Shown here piece after piece: positions 11,266 to 41,644 of a stretch of DNA of 64,000 nt (positions are counted from its first letter, which is position 1; each line of letters begins with the position of its first letter). The DNA is from an uncultured Eubacteriales bacterium (GTDB lineage Bacteria > Bacillota > Clostridia > TANB77 > UBA1234). A model generated the notes under the pieces. That model ran no database searches. It worked only from the letters and a program-made list of their open reading frames with translations, and had not been told where the DNA came from. The DNA is taken from NCBI GenBank assembly GCA_964515475.1, contig CAZEVD010000001.1, forward strand, positions 90,636 to 154,635, read 5' to 3'. Both the position numbers and the translations under genes were made by a program.

Positions 11266-13890
11266 GTGAAGAAATTAGTTGCAATAGATGGTAATAGTAT
11301 AATGAATAGAGCTTTTTATGGAATCATGAATGCGAAAATGCTTATGACTTCAGATGGTATGTATACAAATGCAATTTATGGTTTTTTGTCTATTTTGTTT
11401 AAGTTATTAAATGAAGAAAATCCAGATTATATTTGTGTTGCGTTTGATTTAAAAGCTCCAACATTTAGACATAAAAGATATGATGGTTATAAGGCAACTC
11501 GTAAAGGAATGCCTGACGAACTTAGAATGCAAATGCCTGTAATAAAAGATGTTTTGAGAGCTATGAATATTTCTGTTTTAGAAATGGAAGGCTATGAAGC
11601 TGATGATGTTTTAGGTACACTTGCTAAGTATGGTGAAAATAATGAAATAGATGTTTTATTACTAACAGGAGATAGAGATGCATTGCAACTTGTTTCTGAA
11701 AAAGTTACTGTTAGAATCCCAACGACTAGAATGGGTAAAACAGAGAGTACAGATTATTCACCAGAAGTTGTAAAAGAAAAGTTTGGAATTAATCCGATTG
11801 AATTTATACAAATAAAAGGATTAATGGGAGATACTTCTGATAATATTCCTGGTGTACCTGGTGTTGGTGAAAAGACTGCATTTTCACTTATTACTAAATA
11901 TAACAATATTGATGTTATTTATGATGCTTTAGATAAAGGTGAAGAGTTAGAAGGAATTAAAGGAAAACTAAAAGAAAAGCTTATTGAAAATAAAGAACTT
12001 GCATATTTGTCTAGAGATTTAGGTACTATTTTTAGAGATGTGCCTATTGATTTCGAAAATATAGATATTGAGAAAAAAGAATTTAATAATGATAAATTAT
12101 ATGAGTTGTTTATAAAATTACAGTTAAAAACTTTCATTGAAAAATTAAATTTAAAAGGAAATGATTCGTATAATAAATCAGAAAAAATAAATGAAGAACT
12201 AGAAATAGAAGAGTTTGATAAATTAAAGTTAGATGATGTGTCAGAAGTTTCGTATTACTTAGATGGAAATGAATTAGCTGTATATGATGGAAATAGAGCG
12301 TTTTATACATCTGAAGTTACTGAAGAAGAGTTAAGAAAACTTTTTGAAAGTGATACTTTAAAAATTGGATTTGATGAGAAAAAAGATTATTTAAGATTAA
12401 AAAAATCAGATATTAAAGCGAATAATTTAACTTTCGACTTAACTATTGCCGCATATCTTTTAGATCCTTCTAAATCAACATATAAACTAGATGATTTGAT
12501 TTTAGAACAATTAGGTGTTTTGGTAGAGAAAAAAGAAGAAAATGAACAGATAACGTTTGCTGGTTTTGGAGAAACAACGGAAATTAATAATAAGGATACT
12601 TATTGTAAGTATGCTAAGTATATTTTCTTGTGTAAACAAAAATATGAAGAAGAACTAAAAAATAAAAATGAATATAAATTGTTTACGGATATTGAAATGC
12701 CGCTTATGCAAGTGCTTGCAAATATGGAATATGAAGGTGTACTTGTTGATAAAAATATGCTTTCTGAATATTCAGTTTCTTTAAATCAAAAAGTTGAAAA
12801 TTTATCAAAAGAAATTTGGGAACTTGCCGGAACAGAGTTTAATATCAATTCACCAAAACAATTAGGAGAAGTTTTGTTTGAAAAGTTGAATCTGCCAGTT
12901 ATAAAGAAAACAAAAAGTGGATATTCAACAGATAGTGATGTTTTGGAAAAGTTATCAGAAGAACATCCAGTGGTTGAAAAAGTTTTAGAGTACAGAACTC
13001 TTGCAAAACTAAAAGCTACGTATGTTGATGGAATGCTTGCACTAATAAATTCGGATACACAAAGAATTCATGCAAAGTTTAATCAAACTGTAACTGCTAC
13101 TGGCAGAATAAGCTGCACAGACCCGAATCTTCAAAATATTCCAATTAGAACAGAACTTGGAAGAGAACTTAGAAAAATATTTGTTGCAAAAGAAGGTTAT
13201 ATATTTTTAGATGCGGATTATTCTCAAGTTGAACTTCGTGTGCTTGCTCATATGTCTGGCGATGAAAATATGATAAAAGCATTTAACGAAGATATTGATG
13301 TTCACACTTTAACAGCATCGCAAGTATTTAATACTCCAATTGAAGAAGTAACAAAACAAATGAGAAGTGAAGCAAAGGCTGTTAACTTTGGAATTGTTTA
13401 TGGCATAAGCGATTTTGGTTTAGCTGAGAATATTAAAATTTCCAGAAAAAAAGCTAAAATGTATATCGAAAAATATTTTGAAACATATCCTAATATAAAA
13501 GAATTTATGGATTCTTTAGTACAGTCTGGTAAAGATAACGGATATGTTGATACACTATGGGGAAGAAGAAGATATATCCCAGAATTAAAATCTAATAATT
13601 ATAATGTTAGACAATTTGGCGAACGTGTTGCAAAAAATGCTCCAATTCAAGGAACGGCTGCAGACATTATAAAAATAGCTATGGTTAATATTGATAAAGA
13701 ATTAGAAGAGAAGAAGTTAGAATCAAAATTAATTTTACAAGTTCATGATGAATTGGTTATTGAAACAAAAGAAGAAGAACTTGAAATTGTAAAAGAAATT
13801 CTAGTTAGAAATATGGAAAATGTTATAAAAATGAAAGTTCCTTTGGTAGCAGAGGCAAATTATGGAAAAACATGGTATGACGCACACTAA
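11266..13890 (+). CDS. polA: DNA polymerase I
   Basis: 5'-3' exonuclease N-terminus. Pol A motifs [21 protein letters not shown] and [12 protein letters not shown] start. Confidence 0.95.
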
Positions 13891-16324: not shown

Positions 16325-16370
16325 AATTTAGCAGAAGATACAAAGATTGAATTTGGATAAGGAGAAAATG

Positions 16371-18515
16371 ATGATTACTATTGAAGAGAGATTGGTAAAA
16401 GAATTTAAGTTAAAACCATTTCAAGTTGAAAATGCAATCAAATTAATTGATGAAGGCAACACAATTCCTTTCATAGCAAGATATAGAAAAGAAGCAACAG
16501 GAGAAATGTCTGACGAACAATTACGTGATTTGTTTGAAAGACTTACTTATTTAAGAAACTTAGATAAAAGAAAAGAAGAAGTAATCCGTTTGATTGATGA
16601 ACAAGGAAAATTAGACGAAGAACTTCAAACTAAAATTATTGCTTCTGAAACAATGACAGAAGTTGAAGATTTGTATAGACCATACAAACAAAAGAAGAGA
16701 ACAAGAGCAACTATAGCAAAAGAAAAGGGATTAGAACCTCTTGCAATTATCTTTTGGGAACAAACTGAAAAAGTTAATGTTGAAGAGGAAGCTAGTAAAT
16801 ATATCGATGAAGAAAAAGGTGTTGCTACTGCAGAAGAAGCAATACAAGGTGCTAAAGATATAGTTGCTGAAATGATCTCAGATGTTGCAGATTATAGAAA
16901 AGAAATTAGAAATATCATTTATAGAAAAGGTATGATTTCGTCTAAAGCTGCAAAAGATGAAAAATCTGTTTATGAAATGTATTATGATTACAGCGAAGCT
17001 GTAAATAAAATTCCTAGTCATAGAATACTAGCTATGAATAGAGGAGAAAAAGAAGAATTCTTAAAAGTTAAAATTGAAGAAACAGATGATGAAATTTTAG
17101 CTTACTTGAATGGTGAAGTAATTATCGAAGATAGTCCATATGTGGAAATTTTAACAGATGTAATTGCCGATTCTTATAAAAGACTTATTAAGCCATCTGT
17201 TGAAAATGAAGTTAGAAATGATTTGACTGGAGTAGCTGAAGAACAAGCTATAAAAGTGTTTGGACAAAATGCGAAAAAGTTATTATTACAACCACCTCTA
17301 AAAGGTTTAACAGTTATGGGGTTTGACCCAGCTTATAGAACTGGTTGTAAAATTGCTGTTATTGATGAAACAGGAAAACTTTTAGATACAACAACTGTTT
17401 ATCCAACAGAGCCACAAAATGATGTTGATGGTGCAAAGAAAAAATTATTAGAATTAATTAATAAGTATACTATCAATATGATTGCGATTGGTAATGGAAC
17501 TGCATCAAGAGAATCTGAAATGTTTGTTTCTGATATGATTAAATTAGTAAAACATGATATTTATTACGCAATGGTAAGTGAGGCTGGTGCTTCTGTTTAT
17601 TCAGCATCAAAACTTGCTACTGAAGAATATCCTGATATTAATGTATCTTTAAGAGGTGCAATTTCTATAGCAAGAAGATTACAAGATCCTCTTGCAGAAC
17701 TTGTTAAGATTGATCCAAAGAGTATTGGTGTTGGTCAATATCAACACGATGTTAACCAAACTAGACTTGATGAAAGTTTAACTGGTGTTGTTGAAGATGC
17801 AGTTAATAGTATTGGTGTTGATTTAAACACGGCTACACCATCACTATTAAAATATGTTTCTGGCATTAACAAAACTTTGGCTAACAATATTGTTAAATAT
17901 AGAGATGAACATGGAAAGATTAAAGATAGAAAAGAACTTTTAAAGGTTTCTAAGTTAGGACCTGTTGCATTTACACAATGTGCTGGTTTCTTGAGAATAT
18001 TAGATGGAAAGAACCCGTTAGATAACACTTCTGTTCATCCAGAAAGTTATGAAGCTGCAGAAAAGATTTTAAATATTGCAGGATATGAAGTAAAAGATAT
18101 TAAAGAAAAATTAGGCGAAGTTAAAGCAAAACTTGCAACACTAGATGTTGAAAAGATTGCTAAGGAATTAGAAATTGGTGTACCTACTGTAAAAGATATT
18201 ATTAAAGAATTACAAAAACCGGGTAGAGATCCAAGAGAAGATATGCCGAAACCAATTTTAAGAAGCGATGTTTTGAAGATGGAAGATTTACAAGAAGGAA
18301 TGATATTAACTGGTACAGTTCGTAATGTTATTGATTTTGGTGCGTTTGTAGATATCGGAGTTAAGAGTGATGGACTTGTTCATATATCTGAACTTAGTGA
18401 GAAATTCGTAAAGAATCCAATGGATGTAGTTGCTGTTGGTGATATCGTAAAAGTTAGAGTAATAAAAGTTGATTTAGAAAAGAAAAAAGTTTCTTTATCA
18501 ATGAAAGGCGTATAG
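16371..18515 (+). CDS. tex: Transcription accessory protein Tex (YqgF-like, HhH and S1 domains) (start chosen at 16371 after RBS AAGGAG; ORF track gives 16347)
   Basis: Conserved Tex architecture with a C-terminal S1 domain. Confidence 0.9.
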   Translation: MITIEERLVKEFKLKPFQVENAIKLIDEGNTIPFIARYRKEATGEMSDEQLRDLFERLTYLRNLDKRKEEVIRLIDEQGKLDEELQTKIIASETMTEVEDLYRPYKQKKRTRATIAKEKGLEPLAIIFWEQTEKVNVEEEASKYIDEEKGVATAEEAIQGAKDIVAEMISDVADYRKEIRNIIYRKGMISSKAAKDEKSVYEMYYDYSEAVNKIPSHRILAMNRGEKEEFLKVKIEETDDEILAYLNGEVIIEDSPYVEILTDVIADSYKRLIKPSVENEVRNDLTGVAEEQAIKVFGQNAKKLLLQPPLKGLTVMGFDPAYRTGCKIAVIDETGKLLDTTTVYPTEPQNDVDGAKKKLLELINKYTINMIAIGNGTASRESEMFVSDMIKLVKHDIYYAMVSEAGASVYSASKLATEEYPDINVSLRGAISIARRLQDPLAELVKIDPKSIGVGQYQHDVNQTRLDESLTGVVEDAVNSIGVDLNTATPSLLKYVSGINKTLANNIVKYRDEHGKIKDRKELLKVSKLGPVAFTQCAGFLRILDGKNPLDNTSVHPESYEAAEKILNIAGYEVKDIKEKLGEVKAKLATLDVEKIAKELEIGVPTVKDIIKELQKPGRDPREDMPKPILRSDVLKMEDLQEGMILTGTVRNVIDFGAFVDIGVKSDGLVHISELSEKFVKNPMDVVAVGDIVKVRVIKVDLEKKKVSLSMKGV

Positions 18516-18541
18516 TATAAAATTTAGAAGAGGTGTAAGAA

Positions 18542-19150
18542 ATGTTACAAATAAAAAATCCAAAGTTTGAAATATCTGTAATGAATAAATCACAATATCC
18601 TAAAAATAGAATGCCACAAATAGTGTTGGCAGGAAAATCAAATGTAGGAAAATCTTCATTTGTTAATTGTTTGATTAATAGAAAGTCTTTGGCTAGAACA
18701 AGTAGTGAACCTGGAAAAACAAGACAAATAAATTTCTATAACATGGATGATATATTCTATTTTGTAGATTTGCCTGGATACGGTTATTCAAAAATGTCTA
18801 AAGCGGAGCAACAAAAACTTGGACCTGCAATAGAATCATTTTTGAAGAATTCAAAAAATATAAACTTAATAATTTTATTAATAGATATCAGACACAAACC
18901 TTCTGAAAACGATAAGATGATGATGGAATTTATTAAAAATACGGGTAACAGATATATCGTAGTTACATCTAAAGCTGATAAGATTGCTAAAACAAAAGTT
19001 CAATCTTACGTAGATGATATTGCTAAAGAATTAGATGTTGCGGATGATTTGATATTTGCTTTCTCTTCTGAAACAAAATTTAATAAAGAACTTATTTCTG
19101 ATGTAATTGCTGAGTCTTTGTTAACAGCAAAGACTTGGGATGAAGAATAG
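18542..19150 (+). CDS. engB: Ribosome biogenesis GTP-binding protein EngB/YsxC
   Basis: G1 GKSNVGKSS, G3 DLPGYG and G4 TKADK motifs. Confidence 0.9.
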   Translation: MLQIKNPKFEISVMNKSQYPKNRMPQIVLAGKSNVGKSSFVNCLINRKSLARTSSEPGKTRQINFYNMDDIFYFVDLPGYGYSKMSKAEQQKLGPAIESFLKNSKNINLIILLIDIRHKPSENDKMMMEFIKNTGNRYIVVTSKADKIAKTKVQSYVDDIAKELDVADDLIFAFSSETKFNKELISDVIAESLLTAKTWDEE

Positions 19151-19246
19151 GTCCAAACGGGGACGTCCTCAATTGGACACCAAATAATGCTTAAATTATT
19201 TATTACTTTAGGCAAGGTGTCCAATTGAGGACGTCCCCGTTTGGAC
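19151..19246. repeat. GC-rich perfect palindrome A with 31-bp arms
   Basis: GTCCAAACGGGGACGTCCTCAATTGGACACC (19151-19181) is exactly complementary to 19216-19246. It begins at the first base after the engB stop codon. Confidence 0.9.
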
Positions 19247-19257
19247 ATTTGGACAAA

Positions 19258-19295
19258 ATAAAACCACGGCACGCAAGGGGCGTGCCGTGGTTTTC
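19258..19295. terminator. Bidirectional terminator between engB (+) and the FtsH-like gene (-)
   Basis: AAAACCACGGCACGC-AAGGGG-CGTGCCGTGGTTTT perfect stem, flanked by A and T runs. Confidence 0.8.
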
Positions 19296-19308
19296 AAATG
19301 TGTTTATC

Positions 19309-20700
19309 TTATCCTTCAGCAGAGATAAGAATCTGTTTGATTTCATCGCCCATAAGGACTTCGTGCTCCATAAGAGCTTTTGCGAGAGCTTCGAGAGCTT
19401 TGCGGTGTGTCTTGACGATTTCGAAGGTCTCTTCTTCAACCTTCTTAAGATACTCCTGTGCAACCAATTCTGTTTTAGTAAAAAGATTGTTGGAATAGAA
19501 TCCGTAATCTTCGTCAATAGAGATAGGACCGATATCCTTATCCATACCGAAGTTTTGGAACATGGCAAGTGCCATCAAAGATGCGGATTGGAGATCTACA
19601 ACTACGCCAGTAGTATTTTCACCGTAAATAAGATCTTCGGCTGCTTTACCACCAAGAGAATAGATGATTTGTTTTCTACAGTCGCTTTTGAACATGGAGA
19701 ACTTTTCTTCACCGGCTTCTTCCTGAGTAAGACCAAGAGATGCAGCACGAGGAGTAATCTCAACTCGACCCAGAATATAATCGGGGTTAGAGTAATATGC
19801 TGCGATAACGTGGCCAGCTTCATGATAAGCAGTGGAAAGACGCTCTTTTTCGGTCATCTGGTTATAGGTCTGACCAGCTTCCAAAGCGAGCATGACTTCG
19901 TTAAAGTCTTTAGAAGTGACAACTTCCTGATCCTTACGAGCTGCGTAGAGAATCGTTTCGCGAACGATGAATTCGATGTCCTTGGGATACATACCAAGGG
20001 TGTTTCTTGCCAATCTTTCTGCCGAGACATCAGGGCTCAGCTCAGGTTTGTATTTTCCGAAGTATTCTTCGAAGAGTGCGGTACGCGTTTTGAGCGTAGG
20101 CGGCATAATCTGGATAACTTTATTCTTAGAGAATACGTTCGGAGAAAAATATGCGTTGGGCAGAGCAATCTGCTGCTCGATTGTGGACAAAACGACAATT
20201 GCGTTAGATGCGTTTGCAATCTTTTGTGTCAACTGATTGTGGAACAACATAAGCGATTCGGGTTTGAGAGCGTTGATAGCGCTGTAGTTCTGAATGTGAA
20301 TGACGCATCCTTTCGTGAAGCTCTTCGCAACATCGAAGATAGTGTCGACCAGTTTTTTCGCGCGGCGCGGGAAAGAAACGAAAGAAGACATATCTACAGT
20401 GATAAGCGGAATGCGAGCTTCTTTAGCTAAAGAAGAAACAAGGAGCGTTTTGCCAGAACCTGGAGCGCCTGCAAGCAGGAAACGCGAGTGCGGTGCGTGA
20501 ACGGGATCTTCACTATAGTGCTTGAGATTTCTGATGTATCTCAAAGCGTCGGTGAATTCCTCGCGTTCATTTTCCATACCAACGAGCTGCGACATTTTCT
20601 TCTCAATTTCTTTGGGCAAAGAGATATGAATGTAGTGCTTCTCGAGGTAGGAAATCTTCGTGTTGATTTTGACGTTCTGAACGTTTGACAAGAGCCTCAT
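19309..20700 (-). CDS. Soluble FtsH-like protein: AAA domain with degenerate Walker B plus M41 zinc-metalloprotease domain (HEAGH), with no transmembrane segment
   Basis: Walker A GAPGSGKT. The Walker B position reads GCVIHIQNYS, with no D-E. HEAGH is present, and FtsH-like GGKAAEDLIYG lies downstream. RBS AAAGGAGG 8 nt before the ATG at 20700. GC is about 47% against about 29% for the neighbourhood. Confidence 0.7.
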   Translation of the reverse strand: MRLLSNVQNVKINTKISYLEKHYIHISLPKEIEKKMSQLVGMENEREEFTDALRYIRNLKHYSEDPVHAPHSRFLLAGAPGSGKTLLVSSLAKEARIPLITVDMSSFVSFPRRAKKLVDTIFDVAKSFTKGCVIHIQNYSAINALKPESLMLFHNQLTQKIANASNAIVVLSTIEQQIALPNAYFSPNVFSKNKVIQIMPPTLKTRTALFEEYFGKYKPELSPDVSAERLARNTLGMYPKDIEFIVRETILYAARKDQEVVTSKDFNEVMLALEAGQTYNQMTEKERLSTAYHEAGHVIAAYYSNPDYILGRVEITPRAASLGLTQEEAGEEKFSMFKSDCRKQIIYSLGGKAAEDLIYGENTTGVVVDLQSASLMALAMFQNFGMDKDIGPISIDEDYGFYSNNLFTKTELVAQEYLKKVEEETFEIVKTHRKALEALAKALMEHEVLMGDEIKQILISAEG

Positions 20701-21112
20701 AAACGGAATACCTCCTTTATGTTCGAAATATTTATGTGCCTTTTGAACTCCCTTATTATATATGCCTGAATACATAAAAGTCAATGTCAAAAACAGTCAA
20801 AAAGAGGAGAAAAAACTATTTTTTTAACGAATAAAATTTACATAATTTTTATAGCTAAAATTGAAGGAAAAATATGGTTAAAAGCTTAGGGAAATACAAA
20901 GTTTACAGATTTTGAATACAAAACAACTTAACATAAGAATGAGAAGAGGGTTGAAAAAATCAAAAATTTTCTTTTTTACGGAAATAGCACATTTAAAGCA
21001 AATGGCGGTTTGACGGGTTGTTTGGTGTTGACTCGTATGCTAAAATTAATTTATACAAAGTAAAAATGTATAATTTATGTATACAAATTATTTTTGAAAG
21101 GAGTGATTTCAG

Positions 21113-40447: not shown

Positions 40448-41644
40448 CTACACATTTGGTAATCGGTGAAATGCCGTTTCAGAAATATTTAAATCCACCT
40501 TAGAGATTATTTCAATTTTTGAATTTTTAAATATTTCTTTCCACTTGATTTTTTCAAATTCATCCCAAGTAAGATAATTAACTTTTGCATATTTACCTAA
40601 AGCTACAATATCTGAATTTATTTCTTTTAGTGTATCTAAATAATCAGTAAGTTGATTAGTAAGCTTTGATTCAAGAGAATCTTTTAGTTTATCTCTATTT
40701 TCTTTATCAACGTAATCTGTTGTTCCTTCAGAAGATAATATATGCGCATTTATATATGTTGTAATTTTTATATTTGGTATGTTATCTTGAATATTGATTT
40801 CGTAACTACATTTGCGTGATGGAGTTAAAGTAAAAGTTACAATTTCTGCTGGCTCATTTATATCAGGTATTCCGACAGTTCCACGTTCTAATGTGTTGGT
40901 TAATATTAGGTGAGATAAAGCTTTTTCAATTGGAATTGTCGATGTCATTTTTCCACCATCAAAGGTTGCAATTCCTGAAATTTGAATTTCATTTTTTTCG
41001 TTTGAAGAATTATTTTTTTCAGTTTCTTTTTGGTCGCTATCTGTTTTTTCTTTAGAACTTTTTAATACAATTGCATATGCATCTCTGTCAATACTTTGAG
41101 CAGATTTATAAAAGTCAAATAATTCTGATGAAACAAATAAATTTGTATAATTATTTGATGCAAAAAATAATTCATAGAATCTTGCTGTGCTAGATTCTAA
41201 TACAGGAGAAACATTTGAAAGAAAATCTTTTGTTTTTCCTTCACAGATTGCAATAGTGGTTTTAGGCCTAATATCAACATTTGCCATCAACTCACTTATG
41301 TGTCCACTTAAATCTTCTTTAGCTAATTCTTCAGAATATATAATTAATTTTACATTCGCTAAGTTTATTTCTTTACTTGTTTGCGTATTAACGATAGAGT
41401 TAGCCAAATAAAGCGATGGAGCAGAAACTGTATACGTGGTGTAGTTTTCTTTTCCGGTGCTACTTTCTGTTCCAGATAATTTTAGGGGAATTGCAATTTG
41501 ATATGTTATATCTAAGTTTTTTTCTTCGCCTTTGTCTATTCCGATTGCAATGACATACGCTAAATCATCTAATTCTTTTCTGTCATAGCATCCAGTTAAT
41601 AGCAGAGGTATTAACAATATAAATAATAATTTAAAAAGTTTCAT
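40448..41644 (-). CDS. gerAC: Spore germination lipoprotein, Ger(x)C family
   Basis: Lipobox LLLTGC, then YDRKELDDLAYVIAIGID, the GerAC-family signature. Confidence 0.8.
   Translation of the reverse strand: MKLFKLLFILLIPLLLTGCYDRKELDDLAYVIAIGIDKGEEKNLDITYQIAIPLKLSGTESSTGKENYTTYTVSAPSLYLANSIVNTQTSKEINLANVKLIIYSEELAKEDLSGHISELMANVDIRPKTTIAICEGKTKDFLSNVSPVLESSTARFYELFFASNNYTNLFVSSELFDFYKSAQSIDRDAYAIVLKSSKEKTDSDQKETEKNNSSNEKNEIQISGIATFDGGKMTSTIPIEKALSHLILTNTLERGTVGIPDINEPAEIVTFTLTPSRKCSYEINIQDNIPNIKITTYINAHILSSEGTTDYVDKENRDKLKDSLESKLTNQLTDYLDTLKEINSDIVALGKYAKVNYLTWDEFEKIKWKEIFKNSKIEIISKVDLNISETAFHRLPNV

Follow-up and report, generated by a model that had tools for sequence, protein, structure and literature searches.

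To our knowledge, FtsH is the only AAA+ protease described as universally membrane-anchored. Proteolysis alongside an inactive AAA-like domain is known from another family: the hexameric, chamber-forming LonC of Meiothermus taiwanensis is still able to bind nucleotide, yet needs no ATP to degrade unfolded substrates (PMC3391209). As regards codon usage, the TCN serine codons of Bacillus subtilis sinR are a case in which synonymous choice sets the protein level according to the nutrient state (PMC3862929). Here we analyse a gene encoding a soluble FtsH-like protein, which is present on a stretch of 64,000 nucleotides (hereafter the window) from an uncultured Eubacteriales bacterium (contig CAZEVD010000001.1, positions 90,636 to 154,635). 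The reading that we favour, and hold to be probable though far from certain, is that this gene is native and belongs to a hitherto undescribed family of zinc metalloproteases, soluble and derived from FtsH, of low-GC gut and rumen Clostridia, and that it carries a codon signature selected at the level of translation. No description of a bacterial soluble, ATPase-dead FtsH was found in the literature searched, absence there not being proof of absence.

Pfam analysis of the protein revealed an AAA domain (aa 105-203 in the numbering of a 493-aa open reading frame (ORF), see below), followed by a weak AAA_lid_3 match and by Peptidase_M41 (PF01434; 1.7e-38, 132.8 bits for a gathering threshold of 29.9). 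Neither PF06480, the periplasmic/extracellular domain of FtsH, nor a Lon protease domain was matched in these Pfam analyses. The score obtained with the NCBIfam FtsH equivalog TIGR01241 is below its cut-off (203.3 versus 600 bits), as is that obtained with NF008004 (129.5 versus 1008), and no dedicated NCBIfam or Pfam model for the family was found. The AlphaFold2 model, for which a family alignment of 51 sequences was used, reaches a mean predicted local distance difference test (pLDDT) score of 88.7. Its best match among solved structures is the cytosolic region of FtsH, 3kds (template modelling (TM) score 0.82, root-mean-square deviation 2.7 Å, 27% identity), followed by 7tdo (TM score 0.81), Yme1, AFG3L2 and FtsHi subunits, and phmmer aligned the protein with Thermotoga maritima FtsH (2ce7) at 6.7e-43. 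No transmembrane segment was detected: the maximum Kyte-Doolittle value for a 19-mer is 1.35, versus 2.58 in true FtsH, and according to the alignment the N-terminal part of true FtsH, consisting of the first transmembrane helix, the periplasmic domain and the second transmembrane helix, is wholly missing. Together, these results show that the protein is folded like the cytosolic region of FtsH and has no membrane anchor.

For the mapping of functional motifs, true FtsH sequences and FtsH of T. maritima (2CE7) served as references. Walker A is intact (GAPGSGKT). Several other elements of the ATPase differ from those of FtsH: IFIDE of Walker B is replaced by IHIQN, the MFVG of the pore-1 loop is deleted (SF-PRRAK is found there), TNR of sensor-1 is replaced by IEQ, the arginine-finger stretch LLRPGRFDR by YFSPNVFSK, and GFSGADL of the sensor-2 region by GMYPKDI. 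The HEAGH residues H293, E294 and H297 are all kept, as are E355 and D369, the latter aligning with the Asp of NDIERAT in T. maritima FtsH. As judged from its sequence, the protein is thus shown to lack the elements for ATP hydrolysis and substrate threading, yet its M41 catalytic and zinc-binding residues are complete. An initial annotation, made without database searches, had recognized the order AAA then M41, the absence of a membrane anchor, a kept Walker A next to a lost Walker B and arginine-finger region, and the HEAGH site with an FtsH-like acidic ligand downstream of it; the domain searches and alignments agree with it on all of these points.

A word-indexed search retrieved about 66 relatives of 450-500 aa without transmembrane segments, which at 30-92% identity rank above true FtsH (28-30%). 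An exhaustive profile search yielded only a handful of further 50%-identity clusters in this size range. The top of that profile search was occupied by multi-AAA proteins of 800-1400 aa, which we rejected as members: they are of the tandem-AAA or true FtsH type, some with FtsH_ext, and their scores are summed over several stretches. A single family member is named, as 'AAA family ATPase [Clostridia bacterium]', and the titled members among the matches listed all derive from metagenome-assembled genomes (MAGs) of uncultured Clostridia/Eubacteriales of the ruminant or human gut. At least seven family loci were found when contigs were scanned with the universal pattern AYHEAGHV, the window's own species not being among the matches listed. 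With PADLOC, the only matches were weak, partial ones to IetA (at most 50 bits), reflecting generic AAA similarity, and a function as an anti-phage defence protein was therefore rejected.

The motif states of the approximately 67 relatives support the view that loss of the ATPase and translocation motifs is a property of the whole family and not just of the window copy. The P-loop Lys is kept in 60 of the 67 members. The Walker B Asp is present in 9 and the Glu in 16, the sensor-1 Asn in 6, the second arginine finger in 4 and the first in none (0/67), while the column of the pore-loop Phe contains a gap in 29 members and polar residues in the rest. HEXXH, on the other hand, is found in 67/67 members, and the downstream Glu and the Asp ligand are each found in 65, the two members without the Asp having a gap there; H293, E294 and H297 are invariant, and so is D369 in the 51-sequence alignment (A1). 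These counts indicate that death of the ATPase with retention of the protease is the ancestral, selected state of the family, and they are in line with the soluble, protease-competent and ATPase-dead protein that the initial annotation had proposed. Strong purifying selection is shown by the comparison with the closest orthologue (ratio of nonsynonymous to synonymous substitutions per site, dN/dS, 0.067 at dS = 0.70); therefore, the gene is not decaying.

By analogy, the FtsH-like protein is probably an ATP-independent ring protease. It would assemble as an FtsH-like ring through its M41 tier, with the dead AAA tier, possibly in a nucleotide-bound form, acting as a scaffold or gate, and its cleavage of peptides, unfolded chains or one particular unstructured substrate would need no ATP, as is the case for LonC and unfolded substrates. 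We consider it unlikely that the protein is instead a regulatory or adaptor subunit that co-assembles with, or caps, the canonical membrane FtsH, in the way of the FtsH/FtsHi and m-AAA hetero-hexamers. Such a subunit would be consistent with the retention of the complete cytosolic fold of FtsH together with the protease domain, through which FtsH hexamerises, with a P-loop conserved despite lost hydrolysis, and with the existence of solved hetero-oligomers that contain catalytically dead subunits (8xku, 8xqw). However, the protein is no more than about 28-30% identical to any true FtsH, an interface with a slow-evolving partner would be hard to keep for a protein that shows 53% identity where Tex shows 87%, and the intact zinc site argues for catalysis by the protein itself. 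A canonical ftsH gene was not found within the window.

The longest ORF at this position in the ORF listing is 19309-20790 on the minus strand and encodes 493 aa from a TTG start codon. This TTG falls within a promoter-like site, TTGACT-18-TATAAT, whereas an ATG at 20700 stands 10 nt after AAAGGAGG and would give a protein of 463 aa. The closest database relative, P0001, is also 463 aa long and 92% identical. Because the TTG lies in the promoter, the ATG follows AAAGGAGG and the resulting length equals that of P0001, we take the coding sequence (CDS) to start most likely at this ATG, and not to be the 493-aa ORF. The motif cATTGACa, 17-18 nt, atATATAAT is kept upstream of every family member examined, and about 40 nt past it all of these have cATAAAGGAGGTATTCCnTT(T)ATG. 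Near-consensus sigma-A and Shine-Dalgarno elements are hence kept across proteins that are only 30-50% identical. In the clade of the window the gene is a monocistronic unit with a strong terminator. As far as such signals can show, the FtsH-like gene is its own transcription unit, whose promoter is close to consensus, whose ribosome-binding site is consensus and whose terminator is strong.

The CDS has a GC content of 44.2% (43.3% for the span initially annotated), compared with 30.2% for the window and 29.8% for the 5-kb flanks. The initial annotation had given 47%, which is too high, and an excess of about 18 points; the excess is indeed strong, but amounts to about 14 points. It resides mainly in the third codon positions: the GC fractions at the three positions are 0.51, 0.33 and 0.46-0.47 for the FtsH-like gene and, on average, 0.42, 0.31 and 0.16 for the 42 other genes of the window. 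The GC content at third positions (GC3) of these other genes has a standard deviation (sd) of 0.024, so that the FtsH-like gene is an outlier with z = 12.5, and none of the 42 exceeds 0.23. The GC1 excess results mostly from synonymous choices for Leu (TTA to CTN) and Arg (AGA to CGN), and GC2 is host-like.

Based on this composition, the initial annotation had suggested that the gene was acquired horizontally. Recent acquisition of an island from a higher-GC donor would agree with a GC content of 44% amid 30%, with the GC3 outlier and with codon usage resembling that of mid-GC genomes. Conservation of the locus, however, speaks strongly against it (W denotes the window copy, L-numbers the loci of relatives). 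The 92% identical orthologue (L081/L082) has the same gene order, tex-engB / ftsH-like / GH18 / pyrG, and the same locus is found in L086 (69%), L087 (56%), L001 and L004 (53%), L088 (52%), L003 (49%) and L089 (44%). The wider neighbourhood, ruvB, queH, polA, yebC, dtd, tex and engB, matches that of the window in L086, L087, L001, L003, L004, L088 and L089. In the deeper clade formed by L005-L007 (37-39%), the FtsH-like gene is located directly upstream of engB and co-oriented with it, and in L005 two ORFs, 1183 and 1237 aa long, are oriented divergently from it; from their size alone, these are taken to be rpoC and rpoB. In the deepest members, L090 and L091 (about 30%), it is divergent from a Pfam-annotated rpoB. 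Adjacency to engB thus extends to at least 12 related genomes (W, L081, L086, L087, L001, L003, L004, L088, L089 and L005-L007), all metagenome-assembled Clostridia, with L005-L007 showing a variant arrangement, so that presence at the locus, down to 37% protein identity, is not patchy. In Bacillus and Clostridium, lon usually precedes engB; here, another protease gene adjoins engB.

Other features of the gene also point to vertical inheritance. When the relatives are ranked by identity to the window copy, the FtsH-like protein gives the same order as EngB, Tex and GH18, although its identity drops faster. The dS value relative to L081 (0.70) is similar to those of engB (0.80), GH18 (0.60) and pyrG (1.09), and the amino-acid composition is host-like, being within 1 sd for both FYMINK (0.315 versus 0.348 +/- 0.040) and GARP residues (0.207 versus 0.182 +/- 0.040). 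The interval from engB to the GH18 gene is free of mobility genes (integrase, transposase), tRNA genes and direct repeats. Among the matches listed, all family members with examinable flanks are located in low-GC contigs (flanks of 28-37% GC), and none is located in a GC-rich genome. The initial annotation correctly placed the gene between a palindrome and terminator on one side (a 31-nt inverted repeat followed by an intrinsic terminator) and an AT-rich region (27% GC) with the TTGACT-18-TATAAT promoter on the other. The adjoining palindromic element might be seen as favouring acquisition, but it is missing from orthologous loci, while the AT-rich promoter and ribosome-binding site are kept family-wide, and high GC3 outlasts the saturation of synonymous sites described below.

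A further observation in favour of acquisition concerns L086. Nucleotide identity between W and L086 is 90% across tex-engB, 70% in the FtsH-like gene and 74% in GH18, and there is a recombination breakpoint at the 3' end of engB between the two; between W and L081, identity across 18104-21713 is uniformly about 85%. The drop between W and L086 therefore reflects homologous exchange between related lineages at this locus, which included the GH18 gene of normal GC content. Taking all this together, recent horizontal acquisition is largely refuted, and we regard it as highly improbable. We conclude that the FtsH-like gene is native and vertically inherited.

The GC excess, then, is a gene-specific synonymous-codon signature and not a sign of foreign ancestry. 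We compared the FtsH-like genes of 15 loci, which represent at least six deep clades without being independent of one another in phylogeny, with their own neighbours. In 15/15 loci, GC3 (mean difference +0.19), the fraction of pyrimidine-ending codons (Y3; +0.12) and the CTY share of Leu codons (+0.34) are higher than in the neighbours and the TTA share of Leu codons is lower (-0.34); A3 and the ATA share of Ile codons are lower in 14/15. GC3 of the FtsH-like gene is 0.41-0.54 in W, L081, L086, L004, L088, L002 and L005-L007, and 0.36-0.37 in L001 and L090. In all clades the same codons are shunned (TTA, CTA, ATA, TCA, CCA, ACA, GGA, AGA, GTA and CAA) and the same are favoured (CTY, ATY, TCY, CCY, ACY, GGY, GTY, CGY, CAG and NAC, with TTG also used). 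Whereas CTC, CCC and CAG are strongly enriched, GTG, GCG and GGG are not, and GCA, GAA and AAA are nearly unchanged. Therefore, the bias is codon-specific and does not reflect a general GC pressure.

Between clades, synonymous sites are saturated (proportion of synonymous differences, pS, 0.54-0.60 for Tex, at GC3 0.15, and 0.74-0.80 for the FtsH-like gene). Since the signature is still present, the pattern is not compatible with one ancient transfer and subsequent neutral decay. Under the genomic bias, neutral decay is expected to give strong-to-weak and weak-to-strong (S>W and W>S) synonymous changes at about 4:1. The polarised counts are 16:14 for the window copy, 9:14 for L005, 14:15 for L006 and 29:11 for L081, so that three of the four terminal lineages show approximately equal numbers instead, a result that is suggestive only.

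A gene-specific mutational process, such as transcription-associated or head-on-collision mutagenesis of a strongly transcribed lagging-strand gene, is in our opinion a very unlikely source of the signature. According to the GC skew of the window the gene is indeed on the lagging strand, in the deep clades it is divergent from rpoBC (in L005 as judged from ORF sizes), its promoter is strong and the protein evolves fast between clades. However, dS relative to the closest orthologue is within the range of the neighbours (0.60-1.09), other lagging-strand genes have a normal GC3, and the bias is specific to codons rather than to bases. Moreover, transcription-associated deamination, as established, would deplete the sense strand of C and not enrich it. 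Replication-strand skew was also rejected, because C3 exceeds G3 both where the gene opposes engB (the W clade) and where it is co-oriented with it (L005-L007), and because a neighbour on the same strand in L088 (1368-3074) has normal A3 and GC3; hypermutation was rejected because dS is normal. Even less credible, and refuted for practical purposes, is the possibility that an overlapping element, either an antisense ORF of 373-401 codons or a structured mRNA, shapes the composition. An antisense ORF (19225-20430, plus strand, 401 aa) is codon-aligned with the FtsH-like gene, and relative to synonymously shuffled versions the mRNA has a slight excess of structure (z from -0.9 to -4.1). Yet the antisense ORF is not conserved: in the orthologues it has anywhere between 52 and 480 codons, and its length follows how rare TTA, CTA and TCA are. 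Moreover, dS is not lowered, and the structure z-scores of control genes span -0.2 to -6.3.

Ordinary translational selection, in which a very highly expressed gene uses optimal C-ending codons, deserves more consideration, although we think it doubtful. The near-consensus promoter and consensus Shine-Dalgarno sequence, kept family-wide, fit a highly expressed gene, as does the strong preference for NAC, TTC and ATC (C/(C+T) 0.57), which the glycolytic and rubrerythrin genes share weakly (0.21-0.37). These genes of the window, encoding rubrerythrin, GAPDH, PGK and TPI, served as proxies for high expression, and they favour exactly the codons that the FtsH-like gene shuns: TTA (0.59), CCA (0.64), ACA (0.67), TCA (0.44), AGA (0.83) and CAA (0.97). 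Only the NAC/TTC/ATC preference is common to the FtsH-like gene and the four proxies, and the correlation of codon shifts is weak (r = 0.25). In addition, GC3 of the GAPDH gene is 0.17, and rpoB and rpoC in L090/L091 are at background GC3.

The shift in the FtsH-like gene would fit a move from codons read by U34 tRNAs, the most used in these genomes, to codons read by G34 or C34 tRNAs, with little change for Lys, Glu and perhaps Ala, amino acids for which a single isoacceptor is usual in Firmicute tRNA sets. This pattern suggests the hypothesis that selection acts on which tRNAs decode the FtsH-like message. Selection on translation would then keep the codon signature, and, as the most economical idea, decoding by little-used G34/C34 isoacceptors would uncouple synthesis of the protein from the heavily used tRNAs, for instance during amino-acid starvation or in stationary phase.

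A more specific form of this idea, which we put forward as a speculation with a low chance of being right, is that the gene encodes an 'emergency' energy-independent protease, whose message in G34/C34-read codons is translated still, or only, when U34 tRNAs are uncharged, under-modified or cleaved. Such states could arise upon amino-acid starvation, entry into sporulation or attack by an anticodon nuclease, and an ATP-independent protease would fit them. The consensus promoter and ribosome-binding site would provide a high capacity for synthesis, gated at elongation. If true, this would be a natural case of whole-gene translational control at the level of isoacceptors, lasting in most sampled lineages past synonymous saturation.

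Several observations weigh against our overall interpretation of a native, ATPase-dead protease gene with a translation-selected signature. Besides the breakpoint with L086, a few family members retain the Walker B D or E, and protease activity, oligomeric state and nucleotide binding are deduced from the sequence and a monomer model. The signature is weak in L087 (GC3 0.29), L003 (0.25), L089 (0.26) and L091 (0.19-0.20), and selection, if present, is therefore not uniform, though these low-GC3 members still favour CTY over TTA. Parsimony polarisation leans towards weak-to-strong changes in control genes, the proxies for high expression are four genes only, and the tRNA genes in the window are limited to tRNA-Met, tRNA-Tyr(GTA) and tRNA-Leu(CAA), the loci of the relatives adding nothing of use.

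Some features of the window concern the lifestyle of the host, which bears on speculation about when the protease acts. Two ORFs, 40448-41644 (-) and 42887-44248 (-), presumably encode Ger(x)C and GerA-type germination receptors, which they resemble in the look of their N-termini. At 26102-26798, one extra C near 26485 ('ttgCggacat') divides the gene for a sporulation-type sigma factor (SigK/SigE-like, with a pro-sequence) between two overlapping frames, as judged against the L087 protein (PLGHDKEG); either the gene is truly a pseudogene, or the frameshift stems from a sequencing error. In L087 (350-6250), the same sigma gene is broken about 12 codons upstream by a skin-like element of about 5.1 kb with a large serine recombinase. 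The germination-like ORFs and the sigma factor suggest that the host is a spore-former.

The features of the locus are listed in Table 1. The palindromic element next to the FtsH-like gene abuts the stop codon of the convergent engB gene and is absent at the orthologous sites in L081 and L086, which carry their own terminators. A related palindrome is located at 24098-24243, between the convergent genes pyrG and rqcH, its arms consisting of three tandem GGAACGGGGACGCCTTGAC units of about 19 nt, and both palindromes have the core GGGGACG(T/C)CC...TTGGACA in common. They look like members of a family of repeats of the REP (repetitive extragenic palindromic) or MITE (miniature inverted-repeat transposable element) kind. 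We rejected the palindrome as an island border, as it is one-sided, missing from orthologous loci and represented by a related copy elsewhere in the window; it is an independent, window-specific repeat and not part of the gene unit. Motifs like GGGACGTCC are present near the FtsH-like gene in L004 and L091, and the metagenome contig L084 breaks at both palindromic elements.

Table 1. Positions in the window of the FtsH-like gene, its motifs and signals, and the flanking genes (columns: feature, position, strand, remarks).
Soluble FtsH-like CDS (likely start)	19309..20700	-	463 aa, stop codon included; GC 44.2%, GC3 0.47
Sigma-A-type promoter TTGACT-18-TATAAT	20755..20784	-	11/12 consensus matches
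Shine-Dalgarno sequence AAAGGAGG	20711..20718	-	10 nt 5' of ATG; within family-conserved cATAAAGGAGGTATTCCnTT(T)ATG
Walker A / P-loop GAPGSGKT, aa 78-85	20446..20469	-	G-x-x-G-x-G-K kept in 60-65/67
Stretch in place of FtsH pore-1 loop	20353..20388	-	aromatic-hydrophobic-Gly (MFVG) deleted or replaced
Degenerate Walker B CVIHIQNYS, aa 132-140	20281..20307	-	QN where FtsH has DE
Degenerate second region of homology	20119..20190	-	STIEQ (sensor-1 Asn replaced); YFSPNVFSK for LLRPGRFDR
Peptidase_M41 domain, aa 282-457	19330..19857	-	Pfam
HEAGH	19810-19824	-	zinc site in M41 domain
Conserved Glu355	within 19630-19644	-	M41 domain
Third zinc ligand Asp369	within 19588-19605	-	M41 domain
Intrinsic terminator of FtsH-like gene	19260..19294	-	15-bp stem, 9 GC pairs, 5-nt loop, T-tract
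Palindromic repeat element, GC-rich	19151..19246	.	perfect 31-nt arms, 34-nt spacer; between convergent engB and ftsH-like
tex	16347-18515		flank, on the engB side of the FtsH-like gene
engB	18542-19150		flank, convergent with the FtsH-like gene
Secreted GH18 glycosidase gene	21113-22396		flank on the other side, followed by pyrG

Other sequences of deviating composition were observed in the window and in the relatives. The region 59900-60700 of the window (about 0.8 kb), just upstream of gap-pgk-tpi, has a GC content of 42-45% in a 30% GC genome; it contains no long ORF on either strand and has no Rfam match even at E <= 1. Possible explanations are a structured RNA not yet described or the remnant of a gene. 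In L005-L007 a small ORF of 102-116 aa is present directly downstream of engB (L005, 12172-12498; L006, 10742-11050; L007, 12024-12374; all minus strand). With GC3 values of 0.33-0.52 versus medians of 0.19-0.29, these ORFs are a second compositionally odd gene there. A Pfam match of the AbrB/MazE fold is above the gathering score for L005 and below it for L006 (18.7 versus 24.7 bits), and no Pfam match at all was obtained for L007. Finally, directly downstream of the normal-GC3 FtsH-like gene of L091 lies a gene (11714-12397, plus strand) for a secreted protein with C-terminal PTAE/PT repeats, which has a GC3 of 0.60, the adjoining genes having 0.16-0.19.

With canonical FtsH (TIGR01241, M41; 2CE7, 3KDS, 7TDO), the protein described here has in common the AAA, lid, M41 order and the fold, the HEXXH motif, the Glu and the Asp third ligand, and 26-30% identity over the whole cytosolic region. 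Unlike FtsH, it is without transmembrane helices, periplasmic domain, Walker B DE, pore-1 loop, sensor-1 and arginine fingers, and as predicted from these missing features it cannot be an ATP-driven membrane unfoldase. By homology it belongs to peptidase family M41 and the classical AAA clade, and it departs from canonical FtsH in five of the defining features. The FtsHi proteins of plant chloroplasts (Ycf2-FtsHi motor; 8XKU, 8XQW) are likewise FtsH paralogues in which one catalytic module is inactivated and the fold is kept (PMC6460958). They are the mirror image of our family: FtsHi has lost the zinc site of the protease, kept the ATPase and is membrane-bound, while the FtsH-like family shows the reverse and is soluble. 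The closest functional analogue is LonC, an ATP-independent protease with a dead AAA-like domain, the activity of the FtsH-like protein being a predicted one. The protease domains of the two are unrelated (a Ser-Lys dyad of S16 versus zinc M41 here), so the likeness is one of working mode and not of family. A soluble FtsH lineage that has given up the motor and retained the zinc protease would be evidence that the M41 chamber can operate in the absence of ATP.

The non-equilibrium codon usage is the more surprising half of the finding, and it is also what misled the inference of horizontal transfer from composition. With GC3 values of up to 0.54 in genomes at 0.16, the family offers a natural test case for synonymous sites far from mutational equilibrium. 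It also calls for caution in the search for genomic islands, as composition alone wrongly marks a native gene as foreign. For synonymous choice in a single Firmicute gene, the starvation codons of sinR are a precedent (PMC3862929). However, sinR involves one amino acid and few codons, whereas in the FtsH-like gene nearly all multi-isoacceptor families are affected over the whole length of the gene.

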